From a virus, in IMG/VR virus record IMGVR_UViG_3300045107_000440, positions 1 to 64,000 of that record: DNA of 64,000 nucleotides. One strand, given 5' to 3'. The notes beneath the pieces were generated by a model. It searched no databases and was not told the DNA's origin. It was given only the letters and a program-made list of their open reading frames with translations. The position numbers and the translations under genes are program-made. The first letter of the stretch is position 1; the number at the start of each line of letters is the position of its first letter. Positions 42,600 through 53,717 of this stretch are shown here, piece by piece.

Positions 42600-42602
42600 G
42601 CC

Positions 42603-42830
42603 ATGAGAAAGCCCATCAAGTATTACCAGATCATGACCCCCGCCACCAACGGCATCTTACGCCCTTTCGAAGTAAACCAATTCGGAGAAGTTGATTCGTT
42701 CTTTGAAAGCGAAGGCCAGGCGGAGCAGTTCATAGCCGATCACTTCTTAGACGCCCAGCAAGAGGACGGAGAGAAAAAGGAGCTGGTGCTAATCATTTTA
42801 CCGGTGTTTATCTGTCAATTCAAAAAGTAA
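42603..42830 (+). CDS. hypothetical protein
   Basis: Track ORF. Confidence 0.5.
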   Translation: MRKPIKYYQIMTPATNGILRPFEVNQFGEVDSFFESEGQAEQFIADHFLDAQQEDGEKKELVLIILPVFICQFKK

Positions 42831-42835
42831 AAGCC

Positions 42836-43075
42836 ATGGAAATAAAAGACGTGTATTTAGACAACCCAAAAACAAAAGCCTTTTACGATGGGCTTTTAGA
42901 ACACATGCGTAAGCAATACAAGGATGTGGTTTTAATAGATGAAGCTCACATAAACGACCGAAACAAAGTATTTTCGGCACAATGGCGCGACAGTGAAGGA
43001 GTAATAAATTTTTGCGGTGGATATGTGCCAGAATGCGTAAAAATTGTTCGCTTCAATGAGAAAAAGGTTAACTGA
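42836..43075 (+). CDS. hypothetical protein
   Basis: Track ORF. Confidence 0.5.
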   Translation: MEIKDVYLDNPKTKAFYDGLLEHMRKQYKDVVLIDEAHINDRNKVFSAQWRDSEGVINFCGGYVPECVKIVRFNEKKVN

Positions 43076-43081
43076 CGAGCC

Positions 43082-43210
43082 ATGAAAAAAAAGAAATCCA
43101 ACCGGGGCGGCCCCAGGGAAGGCGCGGGCCGCCCACCTGGCGAGAAAACCAAGGTAATGCGAATACCTGTTTCAAAGGTGGACGAGGTTAAAAAACTGAT
43201 AGGAAAGTAA
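43082..43210 (+). CDS. 42-aa basic peptide (GGPREGAGRPPG motif)
   Basis: MKKKKSNRGGPREGAGRPPGEKTKVMRIPVSKVDEVKKLIGK, followed by a terminator. Below the ORF-track cutoff. Confidence 0.35.
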   Translation: MKKKKSNRGGPREGAGRPPGEKTKVMRIPVSKVDEVKKLIGK

Positions 43211-43240
43211 CCGCTTCGCGAGGGGCCGAACCAAAAACCA

Positions 43241-43267
43241 AAAGGGCTCTAACAAAGCCCTTTTTTT
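43241..43267. terminator. bidirectional terminator
   Basis: Stem aaagggct/agcccttt, with T-runs on both strands, between convergent genes. Confidence 0.6.
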
Positions 43268-43270
43268 ATT

Positions 43271-44173
43271 TCACATCTCCCCCAAACTATCGTCAAAAAA
43301 GTCCTGCCTTTTGAACTTCCCCTTCTGCTGGTCTTTGATCGCCTGCAGCTCCTCCTTAGTTTCCTGGTCTTTCTTCTCCTTTCTGGCTACCCAGGCATCT
43401 ATCCTCGGTCGGTCGATGCGTTCGAACTCTGTCTTTGTCGTCTTTGAAGGCCACCAATTGGTCTCTTGCTGATATTCGAAGTGCGGCCAGGGCAAAACAC
43501 CGTCTTTAACCATCTGTTTTACCTCTTCTGTCCAGTATCTCGGGTGGATCTTATGATAAAAAACCTCGATTATCTTCTTATTTTTCTCCCAGGAGATAGG
43601 TTGTAATCCCCGCTCAACCTGTGTTAAAGAACACTCAGACCATTCCAGCCGCGCAGCGGCAGTCCGAACACTCCACCCACAGTCCAGCCGGCAGGCCTTC
43701 ACTAATCCCCCATCAAACAACAACGTAACAGGCCCCAGAAACTTGAAATTCTCCATACTCTCCAACAACGTAAGCCCAACAGTCAAAAAAAACGGTGTCA
43801 CCCTTGCTTTCCTATGCTGATGAGCGGTCGTCCCCGGAGGGGCGGGAACACGTTTGCTATTATCTACCTCACAAAACCAATTCTCTCTTATCAATTTGTC
43901 CCAATAAGGCATTATCCTTCGCCCCCAATCTCCCCAACCTAAACTATAACTCAAATCCTGTGGCGTAAAATATCCCTTACTCTGCTCAATTCCCCATAAT
44001 TCTAGCAAAATATAAAACTTCCTCTTACGAAGCGTGGGAAATCGCTTCTTACTCTTTCTAATCACATAATCCAATTGAAAAAACCGCCAGGATATGCCGC
44101 TTAATACACTCATACCCTTATCGGCATCGATGAAAAAAGGGTTTTTTAGTGGAATTTGAGGGTTTTGCTTCAA
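43271..44173 (-). CDS. DNA-binding regulator candidate (central HTH)
   Basis: LVKACRLDCGWSVRTAAARLEWSECSLTQVERG looks like an XRE-type HTH. The gene lies next to an 800-nt non-coding region. Confidence 0.5.
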   Translation of the reverse strand: MKQNPQIPLKNPFFIDADKGMSVLSGISWRFFQLDYVIRKSKKRFPTLRKRKFYILLELWGIEQSKGYFTPQDLSYSLGWGDWGRRIMPYWDKLIRENWFCEVDNSKRVPAPPGTTAHQHRKARVTPFFLTVGLTLLESMENFKFLGPVTLLFDGGLVKACRLDCGWSVRTAAARLEWSECSLTQVERGLQPISWEKNKKIIEVFYHKIHPRYWTEEVKQMVKDGVLPWPHFEYQQETNWWPSKTTKTEFERIDRPRIDAWVARKEKKDQETKEELQAIKDQQKGKFKRQDFFDDSLGEM

Positions 44174-44283
44174 GTTTGAAACCGTTTATAAACGTTTACA
44201 CACGGATAATTTTTAGATTCAGAATATTTGGTCAATCACTTCAAACGCAGAATAATCTACTTTTCGAAAAGTATTTAACATAA

Positions 44284-44505
44284 TTAAAAATTATACAACC
44301 TCAACACAGGTAAAACTTTTATTCTGTTTGAATTTCGCATGTTTGCCCATGTTTTGATAACACATACAGCGTTGAAGATCAAACCAAATATTCTTCTAAA
44401 CCTCATTTCCAGCCTGATTTTCACCATCTGCCAAATCTTATTTCGAAACCTGAACTTATAAACAAAAGGTTTTGACCGGCTGAAAAGAAGATTGTTTGGT
44501 TTCAC
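44284..44505 (-). CDS. basic 73-aa ORF (doubtful)
   Basis: GTG start and R/K/F-rich. It may be non-coding sequence downstream of the minus-strand TACATTTG box at 44671-44678. Confidence 0.25.
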   Translation of the reverse strand: MKPNNLLFSRSKPFVYKFRFRNKIWQMVKIRLEMRFRRIFGLIFNAVCVIKTWANMRNSNRIKVLPVLRLYNF

Positions 44506-44572
44506 TGGCTGAAATCTCTGGTTGACAAAATTAGTCGAAAAACATGTGAAATTGCAAGCCAGGGGGGTTTTT

Positions 44573-44606
44573 GAAATCGATTTTCCTGCCAGCGGGCGAC
44601 CCCGGG
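44573..44606 (+). repeat. 33-nt repeat, copy 2 (non-coding region)
   Basis: gaaatcgattttcctgccagcgggcgaccccggg: 30 identical nt, then one extra c, then ggg. Confidence 0.9.
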
Positions 44607-44670
44607 TATTTATACAGATACCCCACCTTCACGTTTCCCTCCAAATTTCCATCATTTAAGCTTATTCATT

Positions 44671-44678
44671 CAAATGTA
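44671..44678 (-). promoter_or_regulatory. -7 box TACATTTG (minus strand)
   Basis: Lies in the 800-nt non-coding region. Transcription from it would run through repeat copy 2 (44573-44606). Confidence 0.4.
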
Positions 44679-44986
44679 AAAAACAGGCTATAGTTTGAAT
44701 TTACGCTGATTTAATGGCATTCAGCTTTCTGTAGAGGTGATTTCAATAAACGACCTCATTTTAAGCCATTACACGAGAGATTAATTCAGGTGTGCCAGAG
44801 GCAGGTAAAGTTCTGGGCGCTGAATGGCCGTCAAATGGCCGCATTACCAGGGGTGTTTTAAGGCCATACCAATCAACGATGGATGTTTCACGTGAAAAAC
44901 TTTTACATTTTTATGTGGAATAATTTGACATAAAAGGACAAATGTTGTACCTATGCCCCAGTAAAATACAATTCAGTTAGCCTTTT

Positions 44987-45202
44987 ATGAGTAAAAACGT
45001 GATTTTCTGGTACGGGAAGAACATTTTTCCAGGCGGACAAGAGGAGGTGATGATGAAGACCATGAAAGGGCTGGCCGATGAGTTGGGTGTGCCTTACAGT
45101 ACGGCCAAGAGTAAGAAGCCAGAAGTGGGTGAGAGGGTTATCTGGAGGAGCGAGATGGGGATTTTTGAAGTTTGGACCAAGGAGGTAAAGAATTTCAGAT
45201 GA
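44987..45202 (+). CDS. small HTH-like protein (excisionase/regulator candidate)
   Basis: MKGLADELGVPYSTAKSK resembles a short HTH. Confidence 0.45.
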   Translation: MSKNVIFWYGKNIFPGGQEEVMMKTMKGLADELGVPYSTAKSKKPEVGERVIWRSEMGIFEVWTKEVKNFR

Positions 45203-45354
45203 TCTACGTGAACAAAATAATCAATTCCGATGTGCTGGGCGAGAAGGGGATCTCGACGGATACGAAACCTTATAGATGATATTCGATCAATGATCGAAGT
45301 GGAGAAAGTAGAGTGGGGCTGTAAGGGTTTTTTGGGGTTTAAAAAATAAAGCAA

Positions 45355-45543
45355 ATGACAAAACTCAAAGGCACGATAAAGGTCAACAACCTTACCAAGG
45401 AATCCAATGCCTCAAGAGACAGAGATTACGCCTTTGTCTTCAGCGAAGACATTCAAGATTGGATGACCTCTCCCAACAGGAGGCAGAATGATAAGAGGCA
45501 TAAGAAGTCGGAGAGGATTAGGAGATTGAAACAATCCGATTAA
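45355..45543 (+). CDS. small basic hypothetical protein
   Basis: Track ORF. Confidence 0.45.
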   Translation: MTKLKGTIKVNNLTKESNASRDRDYAFVFSEDIQDWMTSPNRRQNDKRHKKSERIRRLKQSD

Positions 45544-45635
45544 ATAAACAAGTAAAAACATTTGACTTTTGAACCGCAGGTGCTACATTTGATTTCTATT
45601 TTTAACCACAACAATTTAACCAAAATTATCAGGCC

Positions 45636-45854
45636 ATGACCCAAGAAGAAATTGACAAAATTCAAAGAGACAATAAACAGGATTCGGACATCCTGGAATT
45701 GTTTGACCGCGTGAAGAAGCTGGAAAGCAACGTATTTGCTACAAAAGACGAGTTTGTAAATGTAGCAAAAGACCCAGCGCCTCCAACGGAGCAAGGCAAT
45801 ACTGATCAAGGTGATCATGGTTCTTCAACAGAAGGTGAATCAAGTGCTCAGTAA
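45636..45854 (+). CDS. small acidic hypothetical protein
   Basis: Track ORF. Confidence 0.45.
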   Translation: MTQEEIDKIQRDNKQDSDILELFDRVKKLESNVFATKDEFVNVAKDPAPPTEQGNTDQGDHGSSTEGESSAQ

Positions 45855-45878
45855 CTTGATTGGTAAGTAAAAAGAATT

Positions 45879-45886
45879 TACATTTG
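45879..45886 (+). promoter_or_regulatory. -7 box TACATTTG
   Basis: Lies 3 nt upstream of ATG 45890. Confidence 0.45.
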
Positions 45887-45889
45887 ACT

Positions 45890-46249
45890 ATGAAACGTTT
45901 CATCCTCTTGTCGATCTTAGCTCTCACAGTGGGAGTAATCGGCACCGCGGCTGCAATGCCAGCGGATCATGATGGGTTGAAGTACGAAGTTTCATTCACT
46001 ATCCCGTCCGCGGAGTTTTCCGCCTCTGACGTGGTGATCACCCCCAGCTATGAATTTGTAGTTCCTTTACAGGATACCAAATTCGTGGGAGAAGCAGAAG
46101 GTTACGAGGTTACCAAACTTCGGCCGCCTGCGGAGATCACAAAAGACTTTAATAGTGAAATTTTAACTTCGAATTACTTTGATCCGCCCGGCCAATCAAA
46201 AACCGGTAATCACCTTTTGCCCGACATCAGGCGATTGAGTTGTAATTAA
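45890..46249 (+). CDS. secreted hypothetical protein
   Basis: ATG 45890 (MKRFILLSILALTVGVIGTAAA...). TACATTTG box at 45879-45886 and a terminator at 46274-46307. Confidence 0.55.
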   Translation: MKRFILLSILALTVGVIGTAAAMPADHDGLKYEVSFTIPSAEFSASDVVITPSYEFVVPLQDTKFVGEAEGYEVTKLRPPAEITKDFNSEILTSNYFDPPGQSKTGNHLLPDIRRLSCN

Positions 46250-46273
46250 CAGAAGACTTTAAGGTGATTTAAG

Positions 46274-46307
46274 AAGCCTCGGTAATTTTACTGAGGCTTT
46301 TTGTTTT
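46274..46307 (+). terminator. rho-independent terminator
   Basis: Stem aagcctc/gaggctt plus a T-run, after gene 45890..46249. Confidence 0.6.
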
Positions 46308-46323
46308 TCATTGTAAAATAATA

Positions 46324-46335
46324 TTACTTTGCATC
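46324..46335 (+). promoter_or_regulatory. conserved motif TTACTTTGCATC ahead of leader L1 (-7-box-like)
   Basis: The motif recurs at 46771-46784 and 47418-47429, each time ending at the leader ATG. Confidence 0.45.
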
Positions 46336-46395
46336 ATGAAATCATTCAAACATCAGCGACCCTTCCAACAATCACTTCGTGATACGGGAGAATAG
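46336..46395 (+). CDS. leader mini-ORF L1 (19 aa, MKSFKHQRPFQQSLRDTGE)
   Basis: ATG lies 5 nt after the TTACTTTGCATC motif. Codons 6-9 are cat cag cga ccc (His-Gln-Arg-Pro). The ORF is followed by a terminator and then tRNA Pro, Gln, His, Arg. Confidence 0.55.
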   Translation: MKSFKHQRPFQQSLRDTGE

Positions 46396-46422
46396 CGTCT
46401 GAATTTTTTCAAAGAAATTGAA

Positions 46423-46456
46423 GCCTTCCGTAAACTCGGAGGGCTTTTTTATTTTT
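46423..46456 (+). terminator. terminator/attenuator hairpin of unit 1
   Basis: gccttccg (46423-30) pairs with cggagggc (46437-44), followed by T6AT5. tRNA-Pro starts at 46457. Confidence 0.6.
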
Positions 46457-46531
46457 CGGGCATTGGAGGAGTCCGCAGTCCTCGCTTCACTTGGAATGAA
46501 GAGATCGTTGGTTGAAATCCAGCATGCCCGA
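46457..46531 (+). tRNA. tRNA-Pro (anticodon TGG)
   Basis: Hand fold: acceptor cgggcat/atgcccg, anticodon arm cttca-cttggaa-tgaag, T arm gttgg-ttgaaat-ccagc. Confidence 0.8.
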
Positions 46532-46532
46532 C

Positions 46533-46603
46533 TGCCGTATCGTATAAAGGTAGTACACGAGACTTTGATTCTCGGAGTGGAGGTTCGATACCTTCTACGG
46601 TAA
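46533..46603 (+). tRNA. tRNA-Gln (anticodon TTG)
   Basis: Acceptor tgccgta/tacggta (U1-A72), anticodon arm cgaga-ctttgat-tctcg, T loop ttcgata. Confidence 0.8.
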
Positions 46604-46610
46604 CTTATAT

Positions 46611-46683
46611 GGTGATTTTCGACTAATGGCTAAGTCGCCTCTCTGTGAAAGAGGAAAAGAGAGATCGAAACTCTCACTTCACC
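46611..46683 (+). tRNA. tRNA-His (anticodon GTG)
   Basis: Anticodon arm cctct-ctgtgaa-agagg. An encoded G-1 is opposite C73. Two mismatches in the acceptor stem. Confidence 0.7.
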
Positions 46684-46688
46684 CAAAT

Positions 46689-46760
46689 GTTCCCGTGGTC
46701 TAATGGAAGGGCACTGAGCTACGAACTCAGAATATCAAGGTTCGAGTCCTTGCGGGAATA
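46689..46760 (+). tRNA. tRNA-Arg (anticodon ACG)
   Basis: Acceptor gttcccg/cgggaat, anticodon arm ctgag-ctacgaa-ctcag, T arm caagg-ttcgagt-ccttg. Confidence 0.8.
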
Positions 46761-46770
46761 CAGATTATTA

Positions 46771-46784
46771 TTAACTTTGCATCC
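46771..46784 (+). promoter_or_regulatory. conserved motif TTAACTTTGCATCC ahead of leader L2
   Basis: See 46324-46335. Confidence 0.45.
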
Positions 46785-46853
46785 ATGAACAAGAAAGGAC
46801 TATTGTCGCTCTCATTAAGTTATTCGATGAATAACCGAGAGGATATTGTCTAA
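46785..46853 (+). CDS. leader mini-ORF L2 (22 aa, MNKKGLLSLSLSYSMNNREDIV)
   Basis: ATG follows TTAACTTTGCATCC. Codons 6-14 are cta ttg tcg ctc tca tta agt tat tcg. The ORF is followed by a terminator and then tRNA Leu x3, Ser x2, Tyr. Confidence 0.6.
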   Translation: MNKKGLLSLSLSYSMNNREDIV

Positions 46854-46876
46854 ACTTTTCAAAAAAGAAATTAGCG

Positions 46877-46906
46877 AAAGCCTCTCAGAAATGGGAGGCT
46901 TTTTTT
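46877..46906 (+). terminator. terminator/attenuator hairpin of unit 2
   Basis: aaagcctctc (46877-86) pairs with gggaggcttt (46893-902), with a T-run to 46906. The next tRNA starts at 46909. Confidence 0.6.
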
Positions 46907-46908
46907 AT

Positions 46909-46983
46909 GCACGCGTAGCCCAATTGGCAGGAGGCGCCAGATTTAGGATCTGGGCAGTGTGGGTTCGAATCCCTCCGCGTGTA
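46909..46983 (+). tRNA. tRNA-Leu-like (anticodon TAG), short variable region
   Basis: Acceptor gcacgcg/cgcgtgt, Leu-type D loop (aattggcag), anticodon arm ccaga-tttagga-tctgg, A73. Only about 5 nt lie between the anticodon and T arms. Confidence 0.65.
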
Positions 46984-46987
46984 CTAT

Positions 46988-47061
46988 CGGGGTGTGGTGC
47001 AATCGGCAGACACGTCAGACTTAAAATCTGAATGTTGCAAGTTCGAATCTTGCCATCCCGA
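46988..47061 (+). tRNA. tRNA-Leu-like (anticodon TAA), short variable region
   Basis: Acceptor cggggtg/catcccg, anticodon arm tcaga-cttaaaa-tctga, T arm gcaag-ttcgaat-cttgc, A73. Confidence 0.65.
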
Positions 47062-47065
47062 CAAT

Positions 47066-47139
47066 GCGCAAATAGCCCAATCGGCAGAGGCAATAGTTTC
47101 AAAAACTATTAAGTAATGGTTCGAATCCATTTTTGCGCA
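47066..47139 (+). tRNA. tRNA-Leu-like (anticodon CAA), short variable region
   Basis: Acceptor gcgcaaa/tttgcgc, anticodon arm atagt-ttcaaaa-actat, T arm aatgg-ttcgaat-ccatt, A73. Confidence 0.65.
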
Positions 47140-47142
47140 CAT

Positions 47143-47224
47143 AGAGAGTTAACGTACCCGGGTACGGCCAGCCTGCTAAGCTGCGCGATCCGAAAGGATT
47201 CTGGATCAGGGCCAGAACTCTCTG
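47143..47224 (+). tRNA. tRNA-Ser-like (anticodon GCT), atypical D and T loops
   Basis: Acceptor agagagt/actctct, anticodon loop ctgctaa, long variable arm gatcc-gaaa-ggatt, T arm tctgg-atcaggg-ccaga, D arm cgtac-ccgg-gtacg. Confidence 0.55.
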
Positions 47225-47230
47225 CTTTAT

Positions 47231-47314
47231 GGAGAATAGCGTCCATGGGGGCAAGCGGTCTTGAAAACCGTAGCGGTCGTGATGAGCGACAGGGTTCGAT
47301 TCCTATATTCTCCG
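47231..47314 (+). tRNA. tRNA-Ser (anticodon TGA)
   Basis: Acceptor ggagaat/attctcc, anticodon arm gcggt-cttgaaa-accgt, a long variable arm, and a weak T stem. Confidence 0.65.
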
Positions 47315-47319
47315 CTTTT

Positions 47320-47391
47320 GGGATGATACACGGGGCTTGTAGGATTGTCTGTAAAACAAAACCTCATGAAGTTCGAGTCTTCTCCATCCCA
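47320..47391 (+). tRNA. tRNA-Tyr-like (anticodon GTA), short variable region
   Basis: Acceptor gggatga/ccatccc (6 of 7 pairs), anticodon arm ttgt-ctgtaaa-acaa, T loop ttcgagt. The D arm is poorly defined. Confidence 0.5.
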
Positions 47392-47417
47392 CGTTTGTTT
47401 TGTATAAAAATTTTACA

Positions 47418-47429
47418 TTACTTTGCGTC
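47418..47429 (+). promoter_or_regulatory. conserved motif TTACTTTGCGTC ahead of leader L3
   Basis: See 46324-46335. Confidence 0.45.
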
Positions 47430-47504
47430 ATGATTAAAGAAAGCGCAAATATTGAGGAAGCTGAGGAACAAAATGTTCCGGTAGCCAAATTGGTAAGGCG
47501 CTAG
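47430..47504 (+). CDS. leader mini-ORF L3 (24 aa, MIKESANIEEAEEQNVPVAKLVRR)
   Basis: ATG follows TTACTTTGCGTC. It has 5 Glu codons, and its 3' end overlaps the start of tRNA-Glu. Confidence 0.45.
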   Translation: MIKESANIEEAEEQNVPVAKLVRR

Positions 47505-47548
47505 ACTTTCACTCTAGTAATGTGCGGGTTCGAGTCCCGTTCGGAACA
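47475..47548 (+). tRNA. tRNA-Glu (anticodon TTC)
   Basis: Acceptor gttccgg/tcggaac, D arm gcc-aaattggtaa-ggc, anticodon arm ctaga-ctttcac-tctag, T arm gcggg-ttcgagt-cccgt. Confidence 0.8.
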
Positions 47549-47559
47549 CTAAAATAAAA

Positions 47560-47649
47560 ATGATTTTGAAAACTTGGTTTACGATAGTGATGATTGGATT
47601 TACAGCAAGAAATTGCGGTAAAGATCGCATTGTTATGACCGGGTGCTGA
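47560..47649 (+). CDS. leader mini-ORF L4 (29 aa, MILKTWFTIVMIGFTARNCGKDRIVMTGC)
   Basis: Starts 12 nt after tRNA-Glu. Its residue set matches the 13 isotypes of the 14 tRNAs downstream. A terminator follows at 47677-47710. Confidence 0.55.
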   Translation: MILKTWFTIVMIGFTARNCGKDRIVMTGC

Positions 47650-47676
47650 CATACACTTTCGAATAAAAAAAGAAAT

Positions 47677-47710
47677 GCCCCGGTCAAGTAAGATCGGGGC
47701 TTTGTGTTTT
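47677..47710 (+). terminator. terminator/attenuator hairpin of unit 4
   Basis: gccccgg (47677-83) pairs with tcggggc (47694-700), followed by tttgtgtttt. tRNA-Ala starts at 47713. Confidence 0.55.
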
Positions 47711-47712
47711 AT

Positions 47713-47786
47713 GGGCCGCTGGCAGAATTGGCTATGCACCTGTTTTGCAAACAGGATCAACTGGGTTCGAAGCCCAGGCGTGTCCA
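47713..47786 (+). tRNA. tRNA-Ala-like (anticodon TGC)
   Basis: Anticodon arm cctgt-tttgcaa-acagg and T arm ctggg-ttcgaag-cccag. The acceptor is imperfect in either register. A CCA is encoded at 47787-47789. Confidence 0.55.
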
Positions 47787-47839
47787 CCAAAGATGTTTGA
47801 ATGCTCATTTGCTTCCACGTAGGGAGACATCTTTTTTAA

Positions 47840-47911
47840 GGGTTGGTAGCTCAGAGGAAGAGCAGGGGTTTGTTAAACCTCAGGTCGAGATTTCAAAATT
47901 CTCCCATCCCT
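47840..47911 (+). tRNA. tRNA-Asn (anticodon GTT)
   Basis: D arm gctc-agaggaa-gagc and anticodon arm ggggt-ttgttaa-acctc. Acceptor gggttgg/ccatccc has one mismatch. Confidence 0.7.
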
Positions 47912-47912
47912 C

Positions 47913-47984
47913 ACATCGGAATGCCAATGGTGGCGAACAGGTCTCCAAAACCAGTTGCGCTTGGTTCGATCCCAAGTCGATGTG
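47913..47984 (+). tRNA. tRNA-Trp (anticodon CCA)
   Basis: Acceptor acatcgg/tcgatgt, anticodon loop ctccaaa, T arm cttgg-ttcgatc-ccaag. Confidence 0.75.
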
Positions 47985-48110
47985 CAAACGGATACGTAGC
48001 GCTGACAGATGGGAGTAGACATGATATCTGGAATATCGAGTAATCCCAGTAATACCGCTAGTTAAGCCACCGTGGATAAATTAAAGGGCTTCAAAATAGT
48101 CTGTCAACAT

Positions 48111-48183
48111 TCCGGAAAAGCTCATGTGGAAGAGCTACTGTTTTGTAAACAGAAGGTTGTCGGTTCGAACCCGTCTTCCGGAT
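48111..48183 (+). tRNA. tRNA-Thr (anticodon TGT)
   Basis: Acceptor tccggaa/ttccgga, D arm gctc/gagc, anticodon loop tttgtaa, T loop ttcgaac. Confidence 0.75.
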
Positions 48184-48218
48184 CATGAAAAGGCGAAGAT
48201 GAAATATTTTGTAACCAA

Positions 48219-48291
48219 GCTCCCGTAGCTTAAATGCAAAAGCATTTCTCTTCTAAAGAAACGAGTGTGGGTTGGAGTCCCACCGGGAGTT
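48219..48291 (+). tRNA. tRNA-Arg (anticodon TCT)
   Basis: Acceptor gctcccg/cgggagt, anticodon arm tttct-cttctaa-agaaa, T arm gtggg-ttggagt-cccac. Confidence 0.8.
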
Positions 48292-48294
48292 CAT

Positions 48295-48366
48295 CGGCCC
48301 TTGGCGCAATGGTGGCGCACCTCGCTCATAACGAGGCGGACGACAGATCGGTACTGTCAGGGCCAA
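48295..48366 (+). tRNA. tRNA-Met (anticodon CAT), C1xA72 mismatch
   Basis: D arm gcgc-aatggtg-gcgc, anticodon arm cctcg-ctcataa-cgagg, T arm gacag-atcggta-ctgtc. Confidence 0.75.
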
Positions 48367-48399
48367 CTATGGAAAGTGATAAGAAAAGCTACGGCATAA

Positions 48400-48471
48400 C
48401 TTGTCGTAGCTTAATGGTGGAGCACCAGACTTTTAATCTGGGGGACGTTGGATCAGTACCAACCGGCAAGA
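48400..48471 (+). tRNA. tRNA-Lys (anticodon TTT)
   Basis: Acceptor cttgtcg/cggcaag, anticodon arm ccaga-cttttaa-tctgg, T arm gttgg-atcagta-ccaac. Confidence 0.8.
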
Positions 48472-48477
48472 CAATAT

Positions 48478-48549
48478 TCTGATGTAGCTCATCGGTAGAG
48501 AGCGGATCTGATAAGTCCGTGGCAGATGGTTCAATTCCATCCATCAGAA
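48478..48549 (+). tRNA. tRNA-Ile (anticodon GAT)
   Basis: Acceptor tctgatg/catcaga, anticodon arm cggat-ctgataa-gtccg, T arm gatgg-ttcaatt-ccatc. Confidence 0.8.
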
Positions 48550-48550
48550 C

Positions 48551-48621
48551 TGTGGGGTAGATTAACGGTAGATCAATGGGCTCATAACCCATGCGTGAGG
48601 GTTCGATTCCCTTCCCCGCTA
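48551..48621 (+). tRNA. tRNA with anticodon CAT (elongator Met or lysidine-type Ile2)
   Basis: Anticodon arm atggg-ctcataa-cccat and T arm gaggg-ttcgatt-ccctt. CCA is encoded after A73. Confidence 0.7.
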
Positions 48622-48624
48622 CCA

Positions 48625-48697
48625 GGGCAGATAACAAACATGGTGTATGTGCCAGACTGAAAATCTGGAAATCGTGGATCGTTACCACGTCTGCCCA
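48625..48697 (+). tRNA. tRNA-Phe (anticodon GAA)
   Basis: Acceptor gggcaga/tctgccc, anticodon arm ccaga-ctgaaaa-tctgg, T arm cgtgg-atcgtta-ccacg. Confidence 0.8.
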
Positions 48698-48701
48698 CAA
48701 T

Positions 48702-48777
48702 GCCTCGATAGCTCAGCCTGATTTAGAGCAACTTCCTTACAAGAAGAAGGCCGGTGGTTTGAATCCATCTCGGGGCA
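48702..48777 (+). tRNA. tRNA-Val (anticodon TAC)
   Basis: Acceptor gcctcga/tcggggc, anticodon loop cttacaa, T arm ggtgg-tttgaat-ccatc. Confidence 0.75.
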
Positions 48778-48784
48778 CAAAAAA

Positions 48785-48858
48785 GCGATACACGCATAAG
48801 AGGTGGTGCACAAGTCTTCCAAACTTGAAAAGATTCGGTTCGATCCCGAAGTATCGCT
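48785..48858 (+). tRNA. tRNA-Gly (anticodon TCC)
   Basis: Acceptor gcgatac/gtatcgc, anticodon arm caagt-cttccaa-acttg, T arm ttcgg-ttcgatc-ccgaa. Confidence 0.8.
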
Positions 48859-49026
48859 CTAAGATCAGGAGGTTGCATGTTGGATTCATGTCATCCACTT
48901 GGATTAAGTTTTATGAAATAGCGGAGCAAAGACAGTAAAATGTCAACAGCCTAAGTAAAACTCCAAATATGTTCCGAAGTACAAGTGAACGGATGTAGCT
49001 CAATGTCAGAGCGTCTGATCTTAACC

Positions 49027-49096
49027 GTTGGTATTGGTTCCGGGAGCCGTGTGGTCTGCAAAATCACAGAGAACAGTTCGACCCTGTTTACCAACT
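49027..49096 (+). tRNA. tRNA-Cys (anticodon GCA)
   Basis: Acceptor gttggta/taccaac, anticodon arm gtggt-ctgcaaa-atcac, T arm aacag-ttcgacc-ctgtt. Confidence 0.7.
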
Positions 49097-49099
49097 CAT

Positions 49100-49176
49100 G
49101 GAATATGGGCCTGCAGGGTGTGGGCACTCGCCTGTCACGCGAGAAATTCAGTCGGGTTCGATCCCCGAATATTCCG
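49100..49176 (+). tRNA. tRNA-Asp (anticodon GTC)
   Basis: Acceptor ggaatat/atattcc, anticodon arm ctcgc-ctgtcac-gcgag, T arm tcggg-ttcgatc-cccga. Confidence 0.8.
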
Positions 49177-49341
49177 CTTAATCTCCTCCTCCGTTAACTC
49201 CTTTTTGATAAAAGCTATCTTATCGCTGCTGCAGAAGCAAAGTATACCTTGCTCATTCCCTTTGATTTCAAACTTTTTATCTACCAGAGATTCGGTAGTT
49301 TTCTCAAAGATTATTTCGGCACCGCAGTGTAGGCAGATCAT
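49135..49341 (-). CDS. small Cys-containing hypothetical protein
   Basis: Track ORF (MICLHCGAEIIFEK...). Its 3' end overlaps tRNA-Asp on the other strand. Confidence 0.4.
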   Translation of the reverse strand: MICLHCGAEIIFEKTTESLVDKKFEIKGNEQGILCFCSSDKIAFIKKELTEEEIKRNIRGSNPTEFLA

Positions 49342-49481
49342 TTGGACTTTTTTACAACATCTTTCCTTATAGACCTAAGCACAGTTTTATCCCTTTCGCT
49401 GAGGATAGTGCATTTGTTACTGGAGTTCAAAAGAACTTTCATCAGGAACAATTTCTCTTCTATCGTTACCTTCTTTGGCAT
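49338..49481 (-). CDS. 47-aa hypothetical protein
   Basis: MPKKVTIEEKLFLMKVLLNSSNKC...; overlaps both neighbours by 1-4 nt. Below the ORF-track cutoff. Confidence 0.4.
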   Translation of the reverse strand: MPKKVTIEEKLFLMKVLLNSSNKCTILSERDKTVLRSIRKDVVKKSK

Positions 49482-49828
49482 CAAAAAGGCAAGTCATCTT
49501 TTGAAGTAGATGGCTGTTCAGGAGTTTGCTGATTTCCCGGCTGCCATTTGCGTGCCTGCTGCTGATCCCATTCTATTTTGAAGGCGTTGACCTGAGTGTA
49601 CCAGCGGCCATTGTACTCCCGGCTTTCAAGACTGATATGTGCCGTTAAAGTTATTCCTGGCTCAAGATCGTACTTGTCGATTAGATCCTGTCCCCAAAGG
49701 GAGATGCAGACGTTTTTAGGATATTGGCCAGGCGTTTCAAGAATAAAGTCGAGCTTACTCCATTGGCCATTTTTGCCCTGACCGGTTACAATCGGGAGGA
49801 CTTGTTTTACGATGCCTTTGATTTGCAT
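49481..49828 (-). CDS. OB-fold ssDNA-binding-like protein (DUF3127 type) with SSB-like acidic tip
   Basis: ATG at 49828 (MQIKGIVKQVLPIVTGQGKNGQWSKLDFILETPGQYPKNVCISLWG...SREYNGRWYTQVNAFKI). A Q/P-rich tail ends in DDLPF. Confidence 0.65.
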   Translation of the reverse strand: MQIKGIVKQVLPIVTGQGKNGQWSKLDFILETPGQYPKNVCISLWGQDLIDKYDLEPGITLTAHISLESREYNGRWYTQVNAFKIEWDQQQARKWQPGNQQTPEQPSTSKDDLPF

Positions 49829-50023
49829 GTTAAATAGGGTTAAAAAAGTGCCTGTCTTTCCAGGCTGCCAGTAATAACCAGCCATTACAAGGGAGTTTTT
49901 ACACACCGAATGGTACCTCTCCGTTACCTCGTTTTGAACATCACGCTGGCTGGCCTTCTTCTTACTTGCCGATCCCCATACCGGGGGAACTGTGGAATGC
50001 AAACAGAGAGGCGTTAAAATCGT

Positions 50024-50458
50024 TTATTCGAGGATCATCCAATCCTCGGCAGCGGCATCGCTCGGTGATGGAGTCCAGCCGAAAATGTCATTGTTAGGAT
50101 ACACGATGGCAAATTGATTGTTGTACCTGATCGTGTTGTAAAAAATTGGATCAATAGGCAAGGAGGTTGCTGAGACATTGCTTTCTTTCACTTGTTCACC
50201 AACTTCAAATCTTCTCAAAAACTCATTCTTCACTGAGTCAGGAAGGCTTTGCATTTTTGGAACGATCTCCAATTTTATCTCGGAGGGCACTTGCATGAAT
50301 ACAAATAATCCTTTTCCGTTCCATCCTGCGCGTTGAAGCATTTTGCCGTTCTTCATTGCTTGCACAGCCTGACCAAAATTCAATTTGGTAGTTGGTGTTT
50401 TTTCAGGGTCTTTCTTTAATTCTTCGTCCATGTCTTTGTCGTTTGCTTTAGCCGGCAT
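50024..50458 (-). CDS. DUF2829-domain protein (Tad2-like candidate)
   Basis: FGQAVQAMKNGKMLQRAGWNGKGLFVFMQVP matches the DUF2829 N-terminal signature as I remember it. Confidence 0.6.
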   Translation of the reverse strand: MPAKANDKDMDEELKKDPEKTPTTKLNFGQAVQAMKNGKMLQRAGWNGKGLFVFMQVPSEIKLEIVPKMQSLPDSVKNEFLRRFEVGEQVKESNVSATSLPIDPIFYNTIRYNNQFAIVYPNNDIFGWTPSPSDAAAEDWMILE

Positions 50459-50466
50459 CCCGCGGG

Positions 50467-50763
50467 TTAGATTTTTTCGTAAGTTTTTTCAAAAATTTCT
50501 TTCTTGCAGGGATAGAACTGTCGATCTTGAGTTGGAAATGGTTCTTCGATAACCCAATCACCAGGCATTACTTTCATGTCTCCTTCGTTAGTAGGAATAA
50601 CCAAACTGAAAATTGGTGCACCTTGCCCAGCCAGATAAGCGGTTTCTGATTCAAGCTCAGTCCGCAAATCAAGTTCAGTCCATTTAATTATTTCCTCACG
50701 ATTCAATCCTGTATATTGAATTGCAAGGACTTTTGTTGGTTTTTTTCTGAATACTTCTATCAT
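50467..50763 (-). CDS. hypothetical protein
   Basis: Track ORF. Confidence 0.55.
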   Translation of the reverse strand: MIEVFRKKPTKVLAIQYTGLNREEIIKWTELDLRTELESETAYLAGQGAPIFSLVIPTNEGDMKVMPGDWVIEEPFPTQDRQFYPCKKEIFEKTYEKI

Positions 50764-51011
50764 AAATCGTATTTGGTTAAAAGTTTCTTGTACTCCTCCA
50801 TTTGCTCATTGAATTCCATCGAAGGGTTTAATTCCTTTAATCGAAGGAACTCACGCTTCACTATCTCCAATCTTACTTCCCTTTCTGGTTGGCCGCAGAT
50901 GTGCTTAAACATCACAGACTCCGCTTGTGACCAACTACCTTGATGGATGCCTATCGAAGCACCACAATGCAGACATTTAAGAGTTGAGTATGATTGATCA
51001 GGCCAAGTCAT
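50760..51011 (-). CDS. hypothetical protein
   Basis: Track ORF; 4-nt overlaps. Confidence 0.5.
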   Translation of the reverse strand: MTWPDQSYSTLKCLHCGASIGIHQGSWSQAESVMFKHICGQPEREVRLEIVKREFLRLKELNPSMEFNEQMEEYKKLLTKYDL

Positions 51012-51394
51012 TTTTTACTAGCGTAATCGATTAAAACAATTTTGTTATCTAAAAATCCAATGTTCTCTCGTTTCAAATCTGAGAAGTGATTTCTGATGGG
51101 ATTTTCAGAAATCCAATTGTGTAAAAAAACGATGTAATCAACCGGCTGCGCGCGCCTCATGATCAAAATCCATCCTCCCCACGAACACCAAAGCACAGGG
51201 CACAGGGACGTCCTCACTTCATACAAGGCACTTCCTTTAACATTTGCGCACTTCCACGTCAAAGACTCTTCCATGTTCCCGACAAGCCCGAGAAGAAAGT
51301 GTTTCCACGCACAAGGGTTGGGAAACTTGATAGCCCATTTGCCTATAAGCAATACCCAGCGCGTGACTCCGGTGGTGATGAATTGAATTTCCAT
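51008..51394 (-). CDS. hypothetical protein
   Basis: Track ORF. A TACATTTG box on the minus strand at 51402-51409 lies just upstream. Confidence 0.55.
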   Translation of the reverse strand: MEIQFITTGVTRWVLLIGKWAIKFPNPCAWKHFLLGLVGNMEESLTWKCANVKGSALYEVRTSLCPVLWCSWGGWILIMRRAQPVDYIVFLHNWISENPIRNHFSDLKRENIGFLDNKIVLIDYASKK

Positions 51395-51401
51395 TGTGCT
51401 T

Positions 51402-51409
51402 CAAATGTA
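51402..51409 (-). promoter_or_regulatory. -7 box TACATTTG (minus strand)
   Basis: Lies 7 nt upstream of the start at 51394. Confidence 0.45.
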
Positions 51410-51521
51410 AAAATAATTAACCAAAGTATTTGCATGAAAGAAAAATTATTTTACTTTTGATCCATGATTTGACACTCTAATGCGTTCTTTATTATCATGC
51501 GTTTATAGGTTTGGAAAAAAA

Positions 51522-51782
51522 ATGGCGGCTTTTAGGGTGGCCGCCTTTTTTAAACTCAATGAAAAAAAAGTGGAAAAGTTACATGACAATGCGGTTTGCC
51601 CTATTTGTAATAAACAGGGACTTAGCCTGGTTCACGAGCGGAGCCTGGCAGTAAACGGTATTGTCGAAATCCACGCCAACGAATATTATGGACACTATGT
51701 GCATGGGGGAGATAATTTACTGATCCGATTTGGATTAGCGGAAGATGTAGAGGAGTTGATAGGGGCGATTCGTTTGCAGTAA
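51522..51782 (+). CDS. hypothetical protein (CPIC motif), doubtful start
   Basis: ATG 51522 within track ORF 51480..51782. A GC hairpin plus T-run (51524-51552) lies inside its 5' end. Confidence 0.35.
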   Translation: MAAFRVAAFFKLNEKKVEKLHDNAVCPICNKQGLSLVHERSLAVNGIVEIHANEYYGHYVHGGDNLLIRFGLAEDVEELIGAIRLQ

Positions 51783-51800
51783 AACGTTCATTGAAGATAT

Positions 51801-51860
51801 TCTCCGGATTAAGGATCACAACCTAAACAGGCGCTCGTGAACGCCTGAGTCCGGAGATTT
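51801..51860 (+). other. compound hairpin immediately upstream of the second tRNA cluster
   Basis: tctccgga (51801-08) pairs with tccggaga (51850-57). Inner hairpin caggcg/cgcctg (51828-47). Then ttt and the tRNA at 51861. Confidence 0.5.
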
Positions 51861-51935
51861 GGGGAAGTAGCTCAACTGGGTAGAGCGCTGGGGTGTTTTC
51901 CCGGAAGGTTGTTGGTTCGAGTCCAGCCTTCTCCA
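51861..51935 (+). tRNA. tRNA of uncertain identity (central triplet GTT in a non-canonical loop gtgtttt; G3-U70 and A73)
   Basis: Clean cloverleaf: acceptor ggggaag/cttctcc, D arm gctc-aactgggta-gagc, T arm gttgg-ttcgagt-ccagc. The anticodon loop has G32 and T37. Confidence 0.55.
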
Positions 51936-51958
51936 CGAAACGTTCTTTAAAAATTATT

Positions 51959-52109
51959 GGGGTGTTAGCCTTTATTGGCAAAGGCTTCTCGATGTTAATT
52001 GCATCAGGGCAGTAGTTAAAATAAAATTATTGGTTGCAAACATGATTTTATAAATAGACCACGAAAGAAGCAAGCTTCTTTATTATCGGTTCGATTCCGA
52101 TACACTCCA
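51959..52109 (+). ncRNA. oversized tRNA-like gene (151 nt)
   Basis: Acceptor ggggtgt (51959-65) pairs with acactcc (52102-08), including G3-U70, with A73. It has a normal D arm gcc-tttattggcaaa-ggc and T arm atcgg-ttcgatt-ccgat. About 95 nt sit where a 17-nt anticodon arm is expected. Confidence 0.4.
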
Positions 52110-52122
52110 CAATTGGAATCCT

Positions 52123-52246
52123 AGAGAGGTGGCGGAAGATAGACGACTTACGAATCGACTAAGTAAGGTTCAAAGGCCGGTCGATGCTGGGAAGTAACAG
52201 CCCTTAGCGTGGCCAGAAATGCAGGTATCGAATCCTGCCCTCTCTG
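52123..52246 (+). ncRNA. oversized tRNA-like gene (124 nt)
   Basis: Acceptor agagagg (52123-29) pairs perfectly with cctctct (52239-45). It has a Leu-like D region tggcggaagatagac and T arm gcagg-tatcgaat-cctgc. Extra internal hairpins include 52154-59/52180-85. Confidence 0.4.
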
Positions 52247-52266
52247 GGTTCCTTTGGTTTTAACAT

Positions 52267-52340
52267 CGCGGGGTGGAGCAGTTGGTCAGCTCGTTGGGTT
52301 CATATCCCAAAGGTCACAAGTTCGAGTCTTGTCCCCGCTA
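52267..52340 (+). tRNA. initiator-type tRNA-Met (anticodon CAT)
   Basis: Anticodon arm ttggg-ttcatat-cccaa has three consecutive G-C pairs next to the loop. There is a 1:72 mismatch (C x T). T arm acaag-ttcgagt-cttgt. Confidence 0.75.
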
Positions 52341-52342
52341 CT

Positions 52343-52582
52343 ATGAAATATACATGTGAATTTTGCAAAAAAGAATTCGATTCATGGTTTTATTATAAGA
52401 TTCATTCTTGTAATAAAGACACATCGACCCAATCAGAATCGATTACTGAATACAAATATGATGATACGTCTTCACAACAAGATTCTCCCATCATAGACTC
52501 GTCTTCCGATTCGGGCATTAGTTCAGAAGATTTTGGCGGTGGTGGTGATTTTGGCGGTGGCGGATCAAGCGACAGTTGGTAA
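52343..52582 (+). CDS. small zinc-finger-like protein with Gly-rich tail
   Basis: CEFCKKEF...HSC followed by DFGGGGDFGGGGSSDSW. Starts 3 nt after the initiator-type tRNA. Confidence 0.5.
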   Translation: MKYTCEFCKKEFDSWFYYKIHSCNKDTSTQSESITEYKYDDTSSQQDSPIIDSSSDSGISSEDFGGGGDFGGGGSSDSW

Positions 52583-52783
52583 TGAAAGATTTGATTGTAA
52601 TCCAAGGCCGACTCCATCATAGATTCTAATGAAATTCTGACCCCAGAGATATTTGACCGGCTTTGGAACGGAGGAGATCCTTCAAAAAACGTATCGCATG
52701 TTTACGACCTGATCATTCAGGAACTTGACTCCGAGCAACGCGTAAGCTACAAGGCTAATTTTAATGACTCTAAGAAAGCGATA

Positions 52784-53602
52784 TTGGAATTCGGGGGAGA
52801 GAACCTCACCTTCCAGGAGATAACTTCTGAGTGGCTCAGAAGATTTGAAAAGGCTCCATCGATGAAGAAAGATAAGGATGGAAACTCCTACCCAAGGAGC
52901 AAATCTACCATAGGTTTCTACCTGCGGCCTTTGCGTAAAGTTTTCAATAGAGCGATTAAAATGCGCCTAGTGTCCTCCGAGTTCTACCCCTTCGGGGATC
53001 AAGGGTATAAAATTAAGAAAGGGAAGAACGTTAAGAAAGCTTTGAGTACCGAGCAGAAAAATCAATTGCTGGTTTATTCCCCGAACTCAGATAAAGAACA
53101 GGAGGCGTGGGATTACTTTGTCTTCAGTTACTTCTGTAACGGCATGAACTTTGCTGACATCGCTAAGATTCAAAGGAAACACATTACAGAAAGGTCTATC
53201 TTGTTTTACCGGCAGAAGACCGACAGCGAGATCATTGAAATCCCTTTGAGAAAGGAGATACGGGAAATCATTTTACGCAGAGGCGTGCATGATCTATCAC
53301 CTCATGCTTTTGTCTTCCCGATCTACACTCACAATATGAGTGCCCAGGATAAATTGGAGAAGAAAAAAGAGTGGATTAAAAAGACAAATGAGGAGCTGGA
53401 GATCATATCAAAGAACCTGAATTTTCCCTTTAAGTTAACGACCTACCATGCCAGACATACGTTTGCTACCGTGGCTTTAAGAAATGGCGCTCCAAAGGAG
53501 TTTATTCAAAAGGCGTTGGGACACACGAGCATGAACACCACAGAAAATTATCTGGCAGATCTTGAATTTGATGTTAAGAAGGCTGTTTCGGATGGGCTGT
53601 AG
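52784..53602 (+). CDS. int: tyrosine recombinase/integrase, possibly degenerate
   Basis: C-terminal box HARHTFAT...LGHTSMNTTENYL is present. The only canonical-type start is TTG 52784, although the frame and SAM-like-domain-type sequence stay open back to 52601. The expected first catalytic Arg position reads N (CNGMNFADI). Confidence 0.65.
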   Translation: MEFGGENLTFQEITSEWLRRFEKAPSMKKDKDGNSYPRSKSTIGFYLRPLRKVFNRAIKMRLVSSEFYPFGDQGYKIKKGKNVKKALSTEQKNQLLVYSPNSDKEQEAWDYFVFSYFCNGMNFADIAKIQRKHITERSILFYRQKTDSEIIEIPLRKEIREIILRRGVHDLSPHAFVFPIYTHNMSAQDKLEKKKEWIKKTNEELEIISKNLNFPFKLTTYHARHTFATVALRNGAPKEFIQKALGHTSMNTTENYLADLEFDVKKAVSDGL

Positions 53603-53717
53603 CTTTATTCCTTCTTTTGCTTGGTGTCTTCTTCTTGGGGAGGAAATAATTGGATAATGATAAAAAGACAAAAACTACTATTCAGAATGCAAAACAAAAG
53701 GTAATATTCTATAATTG

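Follow-up and report, generated by a model that had tools for sequence, protein, structure and literature searches.

Codon-sampling leader ORFs ahead of the tRNA genes of a phage array suggest ribosome-controlled tRNA expression

Organization of the tRNA Array

The DNA analyzed here, positions 1 to 64,000 of the IMG/VR virus record IMGVR_UViG_3300045107_000440 (hereafter the window, to which all coordinates refer), is a phage genome that carries an array of 25 tRNA genes for all 20 amino acids on its + strand (46457-49177). The array comprises four units, each of which is headed by a short leader open reading frame (ORF), named L1 to L4, and the present work deals chiefly with units 3 and 4. 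In unit 3, L3 (47430-47504, + strand) precedes a single tRNA gene, tRNA-Glu, without a terminator, whereas in unit 4, L4 (47560-47649, + strand) precedes a terminator and then the 14 tRNA genes of the remaining 13 isotypes. The four leaders jointly partition the 20 amino acids, and each samples all the tRNAs of its own unit. The evidence for all units is computational throughout.

At its default threshold, ARAGORN reports 20 of the 25 array tRNAs, most of which are also recovered by the Rfam tRNA model; Ser-GCT, Ser-TGA, Tyr, Trp, and Gly appear only at a relaxed threshold. The 14 putatively regulated tRNAs of unit 4 (47713-49177, + strand) are, in order, Ala-TGC, Asn-GTT, Trp-CCA, Thr-TGT, Arg-TCT, a first tRNA with anticodon CAT (48295), Lys-TTT, Ile-GAT, a second tRNA with anticodon CAT (48551), Phe-GAA, Val-TAC, Gly-TCC, Cys-GCA, and Asp-GTC. 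These 14 tRNAs represent 13 isotypes, and 12 of them are found by ARAGORN with default settings.

L1, L2, and L3 share a promoter-like element. The 12-mer TWACTTTGCRTC has three mismatch-free copies in the 64 kb, each abutting an ATG (46336, 46785, and 47430 for L1, L2, and L3, respectively), and at all three sites a TTTG or TTG precedes the -7 box by 19-20 nt. In the element preceding L3, referred to as P3 (47394-47429, + strand), TTTG (47394-47397) is followed by 20 nt, by TTACTTTG (47418-47425) and by CGTC, after which the ATG of L3 begins directly. We take this -33/-7 spacing to fit the Bacteroidota promoter, with TTTG at -33, TAnnTTTG at -7 and a start site about 5 nt past the G. Transcription would then start at the A of the ATG, and the resulting mRNAs would therefore be leaderless. 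A sigma-70 promoter scan was uninformative for this organism. The 12-mer is absent before L4, which follows tRNA-Glu after an A-rich 11 nt, so that units 3 and 4 are most simply read as one transcript; the arrangement predicts a leaderless P3 transcript carrying both units.

Codon Content of the Unit 4 Leader

L4 has 29 codons (MILKTWFTIVMIGFTARNCGKDRIVMTGC) and starts 11-12 nt past tRNA-Glu, with the A-rich CTAAAATAAAA just upstream, in line with the 12 nt given in a preliminary description of the locus made from the sequence alone. That description had presented L4 as a 29-codon leader sampling 13 isotypes ahead of 14 tRNA genes, a view that the codon statistics bear out, as the 14 downstream tRNAs decode 26 of the 28 codons that follow the start, and each of the 14 is sampled. 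Under a null built on the phage's own codon usage, 17.4 cognate codons would be expected against the 26 observed (p = 2.6e-4), coverage of all 14 tRNAs has a probability of 1.8e-4, and count and coverage were jointly reached in 0 of 200,000 simulations. An empirical null was provided by the 361 ORFs of 18-32 codons that begin with ATG in any of the six frames of the window, and L4 is the only one among them that covers all 14 tRNA families.

The codons AGA, ATA, TGG, and TGC, which had been proposed as probes for particular downstream genes, are all present in L4. For ATA, one of the two CAT tRNAs had been supposed to act as Ile2. The CAT tRNA at 48295-48367 has the pairs C4:G69 and C5:G68, which serve as TilS determinants in E. 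coli, and lacks a GGG/CCC anticodon stem, whereas the CAT tRNA at 48551-48624 has GGG/CCC together with a 1:72 mismatch and is initiator-like. The former is therefore the better candidate for reading the ATA codon of L4, and its assignment as Ile2 is plausible, if unproven.

Terminator and Antiterminator of Unit 4

Downstream of L4 lies an intrinsic terminator (47677-47710, + strand; segments 3 and 4), which consists of a hairpin at 47677-47700 and of the T-rich tail TTTGTGTTTT. The hairpin, whose arms at 47677-47683 and 47694-47700 had been recognized in the preliminary description, forms 9 pairs (7 of them G-C) at about -17 to -18.5 kcal/mol and tops the list returned by the terminator scan. 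tRNA-Ala does start at 47713, as had been placed, 3 nt past the terminator tail.

A helix of 8 bp had also been proposed to compete with this hairpin near the TGA stop codon of L4 (47647-47649). The match is exact: 47636-47643 (TGACCGGG) is the reverse complement of 47679-47686, and the helix stops 4 nt short of the TGA at 47647. With its extension, this strand constitutes segment 2 (47636-47647, + strand), the 5' strand of the antiterminator. Segment 2 reaches the stop codon, and a terminating ribosome would therefore cover it. The antiterminator duplex of 47636-47647 with 47677-47686 amounts to -16.9 to -18.8 kcal/mol, comparable to the terminator, and was unmatched in 2,000 leader shuffles in which the 20 nt before the stop were paired with the terminator 5' arm (p < 0.0005). 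In the untranslated RNA, segment 2 pairs with segment 1 (47572-47579, + strand; ACTTGGTT, codons T-W-F), as seen in the minimum-energy fold of 47560-47712.

The effect of ribosome position was modeled on RNA truncated before the terminator 3' arm, with the ribosome footprint masked and its geometry assumed. In this model, the antiterminator gain is 12-14 kcal/mol with the A site on L4 codons 2-14, 5-10 kcal/mol on codons 15-22, and 0.7-4.6 kcal/mol from codon 23 to the stop. The antiterminator is thus predicted to be favored while the A site lies anywhere from codon 2 to codon 22, but no longer once it has reached the stop. The composite first proposed for L4, namely a translated codon-probe leader followed by a terminator and a competing helix near the stop, is thereby backed by the codon and antiterminator statistics, by the ribosome-position model, and by the recurrence of the design in unrelated phage arrays described below.

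Directly after tRNA-Ala, a further hairpin followed by T6 (47789-47838, -10.4 kcal/mol) could be a processing site or a weak internal terminator; long spacer hairpins between tRNA genes are also found in the phage arrays L045, L049, and L050. The mini-ORF MFECSFAST, which also follows tRNA-Ala, was considered as a further leader and rejected, because it is part of a spacer hairpin such as other arrays also contain.

Unit 3: L3 and tRNA-Glu

L3 has 24 codons (MIKESANIEEAEEQNVPVAKLVRR), and its TAG stop codon lies inside the anticodon stem of tRNA-Glu. The latter (anticodon TTC; 47475-47549, + strand) is detected by ARAGORN and by the Rfam tRNA model with 64.2 bits. The preliminary description of this unit stands in its three structural points: GAA or GAG codons occupy positions 4, 9, 10, 12, and 13 of L3, L3 and tRNA-Glu overlap by 30 nt, the end of the former being the start of the latter, and the terminator scan lists no terminator-like site between 47393 and 47560. 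With 5 Glu codons among 23, L3 exceeds the 1.5 expected under the phage codon-usage null for count and coverage (p = 0.015), and 3 of the 361 short ORFs of the window reach its Glu fraction.

The L3 leader also contains an anti-tRNA segment (47436-47470, + strand) that pairs with 47474-47509, i.e., with the acceptor 5' strand, the D arm, and the anticodon-stem 5' strand of tRNA-Glu. Within this segment, GGAACA (47465-47470) duplicates the 3' acceptor strand of tRNA-Glu (inverted repeats I1 and I4). The hairpin that the leader makes with the 5' half of the tRNA reaches -20.9 kcal/mol, against -12.5 +/- 2.3 kcal/mol when the leader is shuffled and the tRNA kept constant (P = 0.0015), and the complementarity also holds under shuffles of codon order only. 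The minimum-energy fold of L3 and the tRNA, in which the leader pairing forms, has -30.1 kcal/mol vs. -23.5 kcal/mol for the cloverleaf state, and the presence of the leader lowers the acceptor-stem probability from about 1.0 to about 0.001.

When the ribosome is masked in such folds, all 20 cloverleaf pairs form with the A site on codons 7-11, which include E9 and E10, and 18 of 20 form with the A site on E12; free RNA or a ribosome at the stop leaves 5 of 20. The leader is thus predicted to block the cloverleaf unless a ribosome stands on Glu codons 9-12. The competition between translation and tRNA folding that had been foreseen for this unit therefore survives in spirit and changes direction, as it is the leader RNA that pairs with the tRNA 5' half, and a stalled ribosome is predicted to release the tRNA instead of obstructing it. 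Unit 3 as a terminator-less folding switch is moderately supported by these models; it is a single case and a weaker one than unit 4.

Units 1 and 2 of the Window

Upstream, on the same strand, unit 1 (46300-46761) consists of the promoter motif, the leader L1 (46336-46395; MKSFKHQRPFQQSLRDTGE), a terminator (46420-46447), and tRNAs Pro, Gln, His, and Arg-ACG. Unit 2 (46749-47392) likewise consists of the promoter motif, the leader L2 (46785-46853; MNKKGLLSLSLSYSMNNREDIV), a terminator at about 46876-46903, and three Leu, two Ser, and one Tyr tRNAs. These units display the design more plainly than unit 4, with HQRP ahead of Pro, Gln, His, and Arg, and LLSLSLSYS ahead of Leu (three), Ser (two), and Tyr.

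Cognate codons number 7 in L1 against 2.3 expected (p = 1.6e-3 for count and coverage jointly) and 9 in L2 against 4.0 expected (p = 3e-3, likewise), and the shuffle p-values of the antiterminators near the stop are 0.03 for unit 1 and 0.008 for unit 2. The antiterminator gain peaks at codons 6-12 (HQRPFQQ) in unit 1 and at codons 5-13 (GLLSLSLSY) in unit 2, and falls to about 0-2 kcal/mol at the stop in both. Since the gain peaks on the cognate runs, the regulatory codons occupy the positions at which a stall is predicted to make a difference.

Unit 2 is homologous to units of three other phage arrays (L086, L300, and L353). TTA-AGT-TAT-TCR is nucleotide-invariant in all four homologues, the window included, and provides one codon each for four of the downstream tRNAs, namely Leu-TAA, Ser-GCT, Tyr-GTA, and Ser-TGA. 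Moreover, the four pairing segments of this family change in concert, as exemplified by CTCTC/GAGAG vs. CTCTTG/CAAGAG.

Recurrence in Other Phage tRNA Arrays

Close relatives carrying this array were sought in several ways. Look-ups of identical proteins gave only 100% identical copies, and over the 3.6 kb that were compared (45801-49400) identical copies are present in a Logan assembly as well as in a 68.8 kb JGI metagenome contig. Relatives reached through the gene of the single-strand-binding protein (SSB; L001-L035) include none with tRNA arrays, and searches with neighboring proteins returned either no relatives or relatives without tRNAs. Exact and purine/pyrimidine-degenerate patterns of the unit 4 terminator and of tRNA-Glu gave no match, and BLAST against cultured phages matched individual tRNAs and nothing more.

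As no close relative carries the array, the search was therefore made by design and not by sequence. The pattern, applied to viral and metagenomic contigs, required TTTGCRTCATG, 150-180 nt, and the T-loop GGTTCRANTCC, and was hence blind to codons and terminators. It found arrays of the same architecture in L045/L046/L050, L049, L069, and L086, to which a terminator-based scan added L300 and L353; seven phage-like contigs, from IMG/VR and from metagenomes, are counted besides the window. In L045/L046/L050, the leader MRMTSLYTFCWFSSSRHRWK precedes Trp, Phe, and Cys; MFTIRIIAMVGGTEKQSPGIPIV precedes Lys, Val, Arg, Met, Gly, Glu, Met, and Ile (Ala); MITNNHTTNQPNPQDCGRARYMDADGR precedes Pro, Asp, Asn, Thr, Gln, and His; and MKAISLYSYLYLSLSTSRNSVAV precedes two Leu, Tyr, and Ser. 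In L049, two Leu, Ser, and Tyr lie downstream of MFNLLSYYSSSLLLHRQAGYSM, and Pro, Thr, Phe, Gln, His, Arg, Trp, and Cys downstream of MNKVFRHTWFTFCPQPGKGVVMYV. L069 and L086 hold Leu/Ser/Tyr units.

Five arrays including that of the window were quantified, for a total of 12 units, 11 with a terminator plus unit 3. All 12 leaders cover 100% of the tRNAs downstream of them, and their cognate runs attain 13 codons at the longest. The 11 terminator units have ORFs of 19-29 codons, a segment 2 that ends 0-12 nt before the stop, and a stop-to-terminator distance of 18-25 nt, and the antiterminator is significant by shuffling (p < 0.05) in 9 of the 11. Matches to the design pattern in bacterial genomes mostly contain zero cognate codons, and phage arrays rank first. 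Leaders for many isotypes are thus usual in these arrays, and L4 represents the extreme.

The Leu/Ser/Tyr unit appears as a widespread module among phage arrays. No clear attenuators were seen in the tRNA array of crAss001, where only a promoter-ATG mini-ORF, MIRR, precedes tRNA-Gln and tRNA-Arg(TCT). The crAss001 array opens with the promoter-ATG junction also seen in the window (TATCTTTGCATC-ATG, at about 1655-1681 of the Bacteroides phage crAss001 genome; L043, MH675552). The mini-ORF at this junction (ATG ATT AGA AGA TAA) has no terminator, and may be due to chance or be a minimal sensor.

Genomic Setting

Phage genes of the window include those for the portal protein (31329-33740), the large terminase (33762-36005), and the integrase (52784-53602). 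The cultured relatives of the terminase are only phages of Flavobacterium, Cellulophaga, Tenacibaculum, and Maribacter, with 26% identity, and the host is likely a member of the Bacteroidota. In the nearest relative (L001, terminase 57.6% identical), a block of about 9.4 kb (40100-49480), which comprises small ORFs and the whole array, is absent (L001 10354-10369), and the SSB gene directly adjoins the homologue of 39263-40081. Because the whole block is missing from that genome, the array lies in a variable and probably acquired block.

Beyond the array, the DUF3127 single-strand-binding protein gene (49481-50002) adjoins a gene on the - strand (50024-50458) whose product matches Pfam PF11195 (Tad2-like), possibly an anti-Thoeris counter-defense gene. 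Two further tRNAs, Asn-GTT and an initiator-like Met (CGCGGGG acceptor, GGG/CCC anticodon stem), lie outside the array at 51861-52341, just upstream of the tyrosine integrase gene (52784-53602), and may relate to an attachment site. At the end of the array, a Cys-rich ORF of 68 aa on the - strand (49135-49341), annotated as a gene in public assemblies, ends inside the 3' end of tRNA-Asp. Within unit 4, 48993-49026, which lies just before tRNA-Cys in a 170-nt spacer (48860-49026), resembles a decayed tRNA 5' half (GGATGTAGCTCAATGTCAGAGC..., with an anticodon-like CTT).

Proposed Mechanism and Alternatives

We consider it probable that units 3 and 4 form one transcription unit whose output is set by the speed of ribosomes on test ORFs made of cognate codons. 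The features of unit 4 support its reading as a ribosome-mediated transcription attenuator acting on tRNA genes. When all codons of L4 are read quickly, the ribosome would reach the stop and cover segment 2 (47636-47647), the terminator (47677-47700) would form, and RNA polymerase would halt 3 nt before tRNA-Ala. Scarcity of any of the 14 cognate aminoacyl-tRNAs would stall the ribosome earlier in L4, allowing segment 2 to pair with the terminator 5' arm and the 14 tRNA genes to be transcribed. The new tRNAs would then relieve the stall, closing a negative feedback loop that would amount to an on-demand tRNA supply. In unit 3, the leader RNA would pair with the 5' half of tRNA-Glu and prevent the cloverleaf, and a ribosome stalled on Glu codons 9-12 would hold the leader away, so that tRNA-Glu could fold and be processed. 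Candidate triggers are the depletion or cleavage of host tRNAs, a mismatch in codon usage, and starvation. A scarcity of tRNA is favored as the signal because extra tRNA would be of no help if the amino acid were limiting.

A broader proposal, to which we give even chances, is that phages of Bacteroidota-like hosts run a codon-resolved network in which a stall on precisely the codons of a tRNA block is needed to turn that block on, which replaces host tRNAs on demand, for instance after cleavage by an anticodon nuclease or after degradation in the course of infection, and to which the unit 3 leader adds a device holding a tRNA misfolded until a stalled ribosome releases it.

Several points weigh against these proposals. 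Only the sequence features, their excess over chance, the alternative pairings, and the recurrence in other phage arrays are shown directly; translation of the ORFs, leaderless transcripts, footprint geometry, conditional read-through, and the nature of the trigger are inferred. Full-length equilibrium folds with a masked ribosome always give the terminator, and the model therefore rests on co-transcriptional kinetics, as for trp. The array has no close relative that carries it, which leaves units 3 and 4 without direct covariation support, and the scan for promoter-ORF-tRNA units lacking a terminator returned no second case resembling unit 3. Taken alone, L3 is only modestly enriched in Glu codons, and the energies computed for the leader:tRNA pairing ignore the tertiary structure and modifications of tRNAs. 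The weak hairpin and T-run at 47789-47838 could subdivide unit 4, to which two (Trp and Gly) of the five tRNAs that need the relaxed ARAGORN threshold (Ser twice, Tyr, Trp, and Gly) belong. Finally, the Bacteroidota host is deduced only from terminase relatives at 26% identity and from the promoter motif.

The short ORFs could be products of chance, and the hairpins ordinary terminators or processing hairpins between blocks of constitutively expressed tRNAs. Spacer hairpins are indeed frequent in phage tRNA arrays, with several here and in other arrays, short ORFs are plentiful (the 361 of 18-32 codons in the window), and the terminator is always present in the full-length equilibrium fold. 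Such a coincidence is nevertheless very improbable in our estimation, given that leaders with long cognate runs and 100% coverage of the tRNAs of their unit are seen in all 12 units of five independent arrays, that L4 is unique among the 361 ORFs, that antiterminators at the stop codon exceed the shuffle expectation, and that bacterial matches to the same search pattern lack the codon match. Scarcely any credence, and marginally less, is given to the leaders encoding small functional peptides, e.g., a hydrophobic membrane peptide, with terminators of their own and no relation to tRNA control. Small phage membrane peptides exist, and L4 is hydrophobic (MILKTWFTIVMIGF...), a property that follows from the tRNA set it samples, i.e., Ile, Phe, Val, Trp, Met, Gly, and Ala. 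The peptide sequences are not conserved between arrays, their shared composition tracks the downstream tRNA set, and the unit 2 family is conserved at the level of specific codons.

The alternative that we take most seriously, while holding it to be the lesser probability, concerns unit 3 alone: tRNA-Glu could be expressed constitutively from P3 past a passive L3, whose Glu content and complementarity would be incidental, for example as the relic of an inverted partial duplication. The lack of a terminator, the p-value of merely 0.015 for Glu enrichment, the lack of a second example in the scan for terminator-less units, a folding z-score of only -1.3 for the whole sequence, and the stabilization of real tRNAs by tertiary contacts that the energy model ignores are all compatible with it. 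On the other side stand the complementarity of the leader to the tRNA 5' half with the tRNA fixed (P = 0.0015), the coincidence of the cloverleaf-restoring ribosome positions with Glu codons 9-12, the promoter-ATG junction that L3 shares with the leaders of units 1 and 2, and the fact that Glu is the sole amino acid missing from L4 whose tRNA is carried by this transcript. It is also conceivable, if rather unlikely, that the same mechanism responds to general amino-acid starvation or to slow host translation, and so times tRNA expression, instead of responding to the loss of specific tRNAs or to codon mismatch. The trigger is not identifiable from sequence, and the leader-peptide attenuators of trp and his sense charged tRNA, which also drops in starvation. 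Yet more tRNA would be useless when the amino acid itself is limiting, and units matched to isotypes would seem to make sense only with individual tRNA species as the controlled variable. We favor the control of tRNA output by ribosome speed on L3 and L4, with tRNA scarcity as the likelier signal.

Relation to Known Systems

Why tRNA genes occur in phages has been a matter of debate for about 50 years (PMC10264068), and a proposed role of phage tRNA arrays is to make up for host tRNAs that infection or defense nucleases have removed (eLife 2023, PMC10264068; Nature 2024, PMC11464382). An array induced by stalled ribosomes would fit such a role. As far as their parts considered here go, these two papers are about the choice of tRNAs in phages and the evasion of nucleases, and a codon-sensing control of expression did not surface in them. 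A full-text literature search, whose coverage is incomplete so that an earlier report is possible, returned no leader-peptide attenuation of tRNA genes in phages or cells.

If correct, the design implies that the phage measures codon-specific translation stress and responds with matching tRNAs, which would support both the supply-on-demand and the counter-defense readings and makes both directly testable. It would extend leader-peptide attenuation to tRNA genes, with up to 13 isotypes per leader, and the control of tRNA folding by ribosomes, as suggested by unit 3, would be a new principle of regulation. The leaders offer a sequence signature by which regulated tRNA arrays may be recognized in metagenomes, and compact parts for synthetic codon-sensing circuits.

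Among known RNA regulators, the Rfam Phe_leader family (RF01859) was considered and rejected, as units 1 and 2 score 28.4 and 29.7 bits against a gathering threshold of 55 and units 3 and 4 have no match; the likeness of units 1 and 2 to it is architectural and does not reflect homology. T-box identity was likewise rejected, an Rfam search of 44000-54000 at E <= 1 being without T-box match, and no other Rfam leader family is reached either. T-box riboswitches resemble the present units in sensing the status of a specific tRNA and in switching between terminator and antiterminator upstream of translation-related genes. They differ in binding uncharged tRNA directly, through a specifier codon and the conserved T-box motif and without a ribosome, and a single specifier is incompatible with the sensing of many isotypes. 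The pheM-pheST system of E. coli is alike in that a component of the translation apparatus is attenuated through cognate codons, but its target is a synthetase, it senses one amino acid, and it is chromosomal.

The closest parallels are found in the amino-acid operon attenuators trpL, hisL, leuL, pheL, thrL, and ilvL/ivbL. Like them, the leaders described here are short ORFs rich in regulatory codons, with alternative pairings 1:2, 2:3, and 3:4, a stop codon whose position lets a terminating ribosome mask segment 2, and an intrinsic terminator just before the regulated genes; the thr and ilv leaders are moreover multivalent, sensing several amino acids. In contrast to these attenuators, the present ones are phage-borne, and their putative targets are tRNA genes, 14 of them in unit 4, instead of genes for biosynthesis, transport, or synthetases. 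As many as 13 isotypes and 14 tRNA species are sampled by a single leader, and the transcripts apparently are leaderless or have an A-rich start, without a Shine-Dalgarno sequence. The feedback, finally, would operate through the supply of tRNA and not through that of amino acids.

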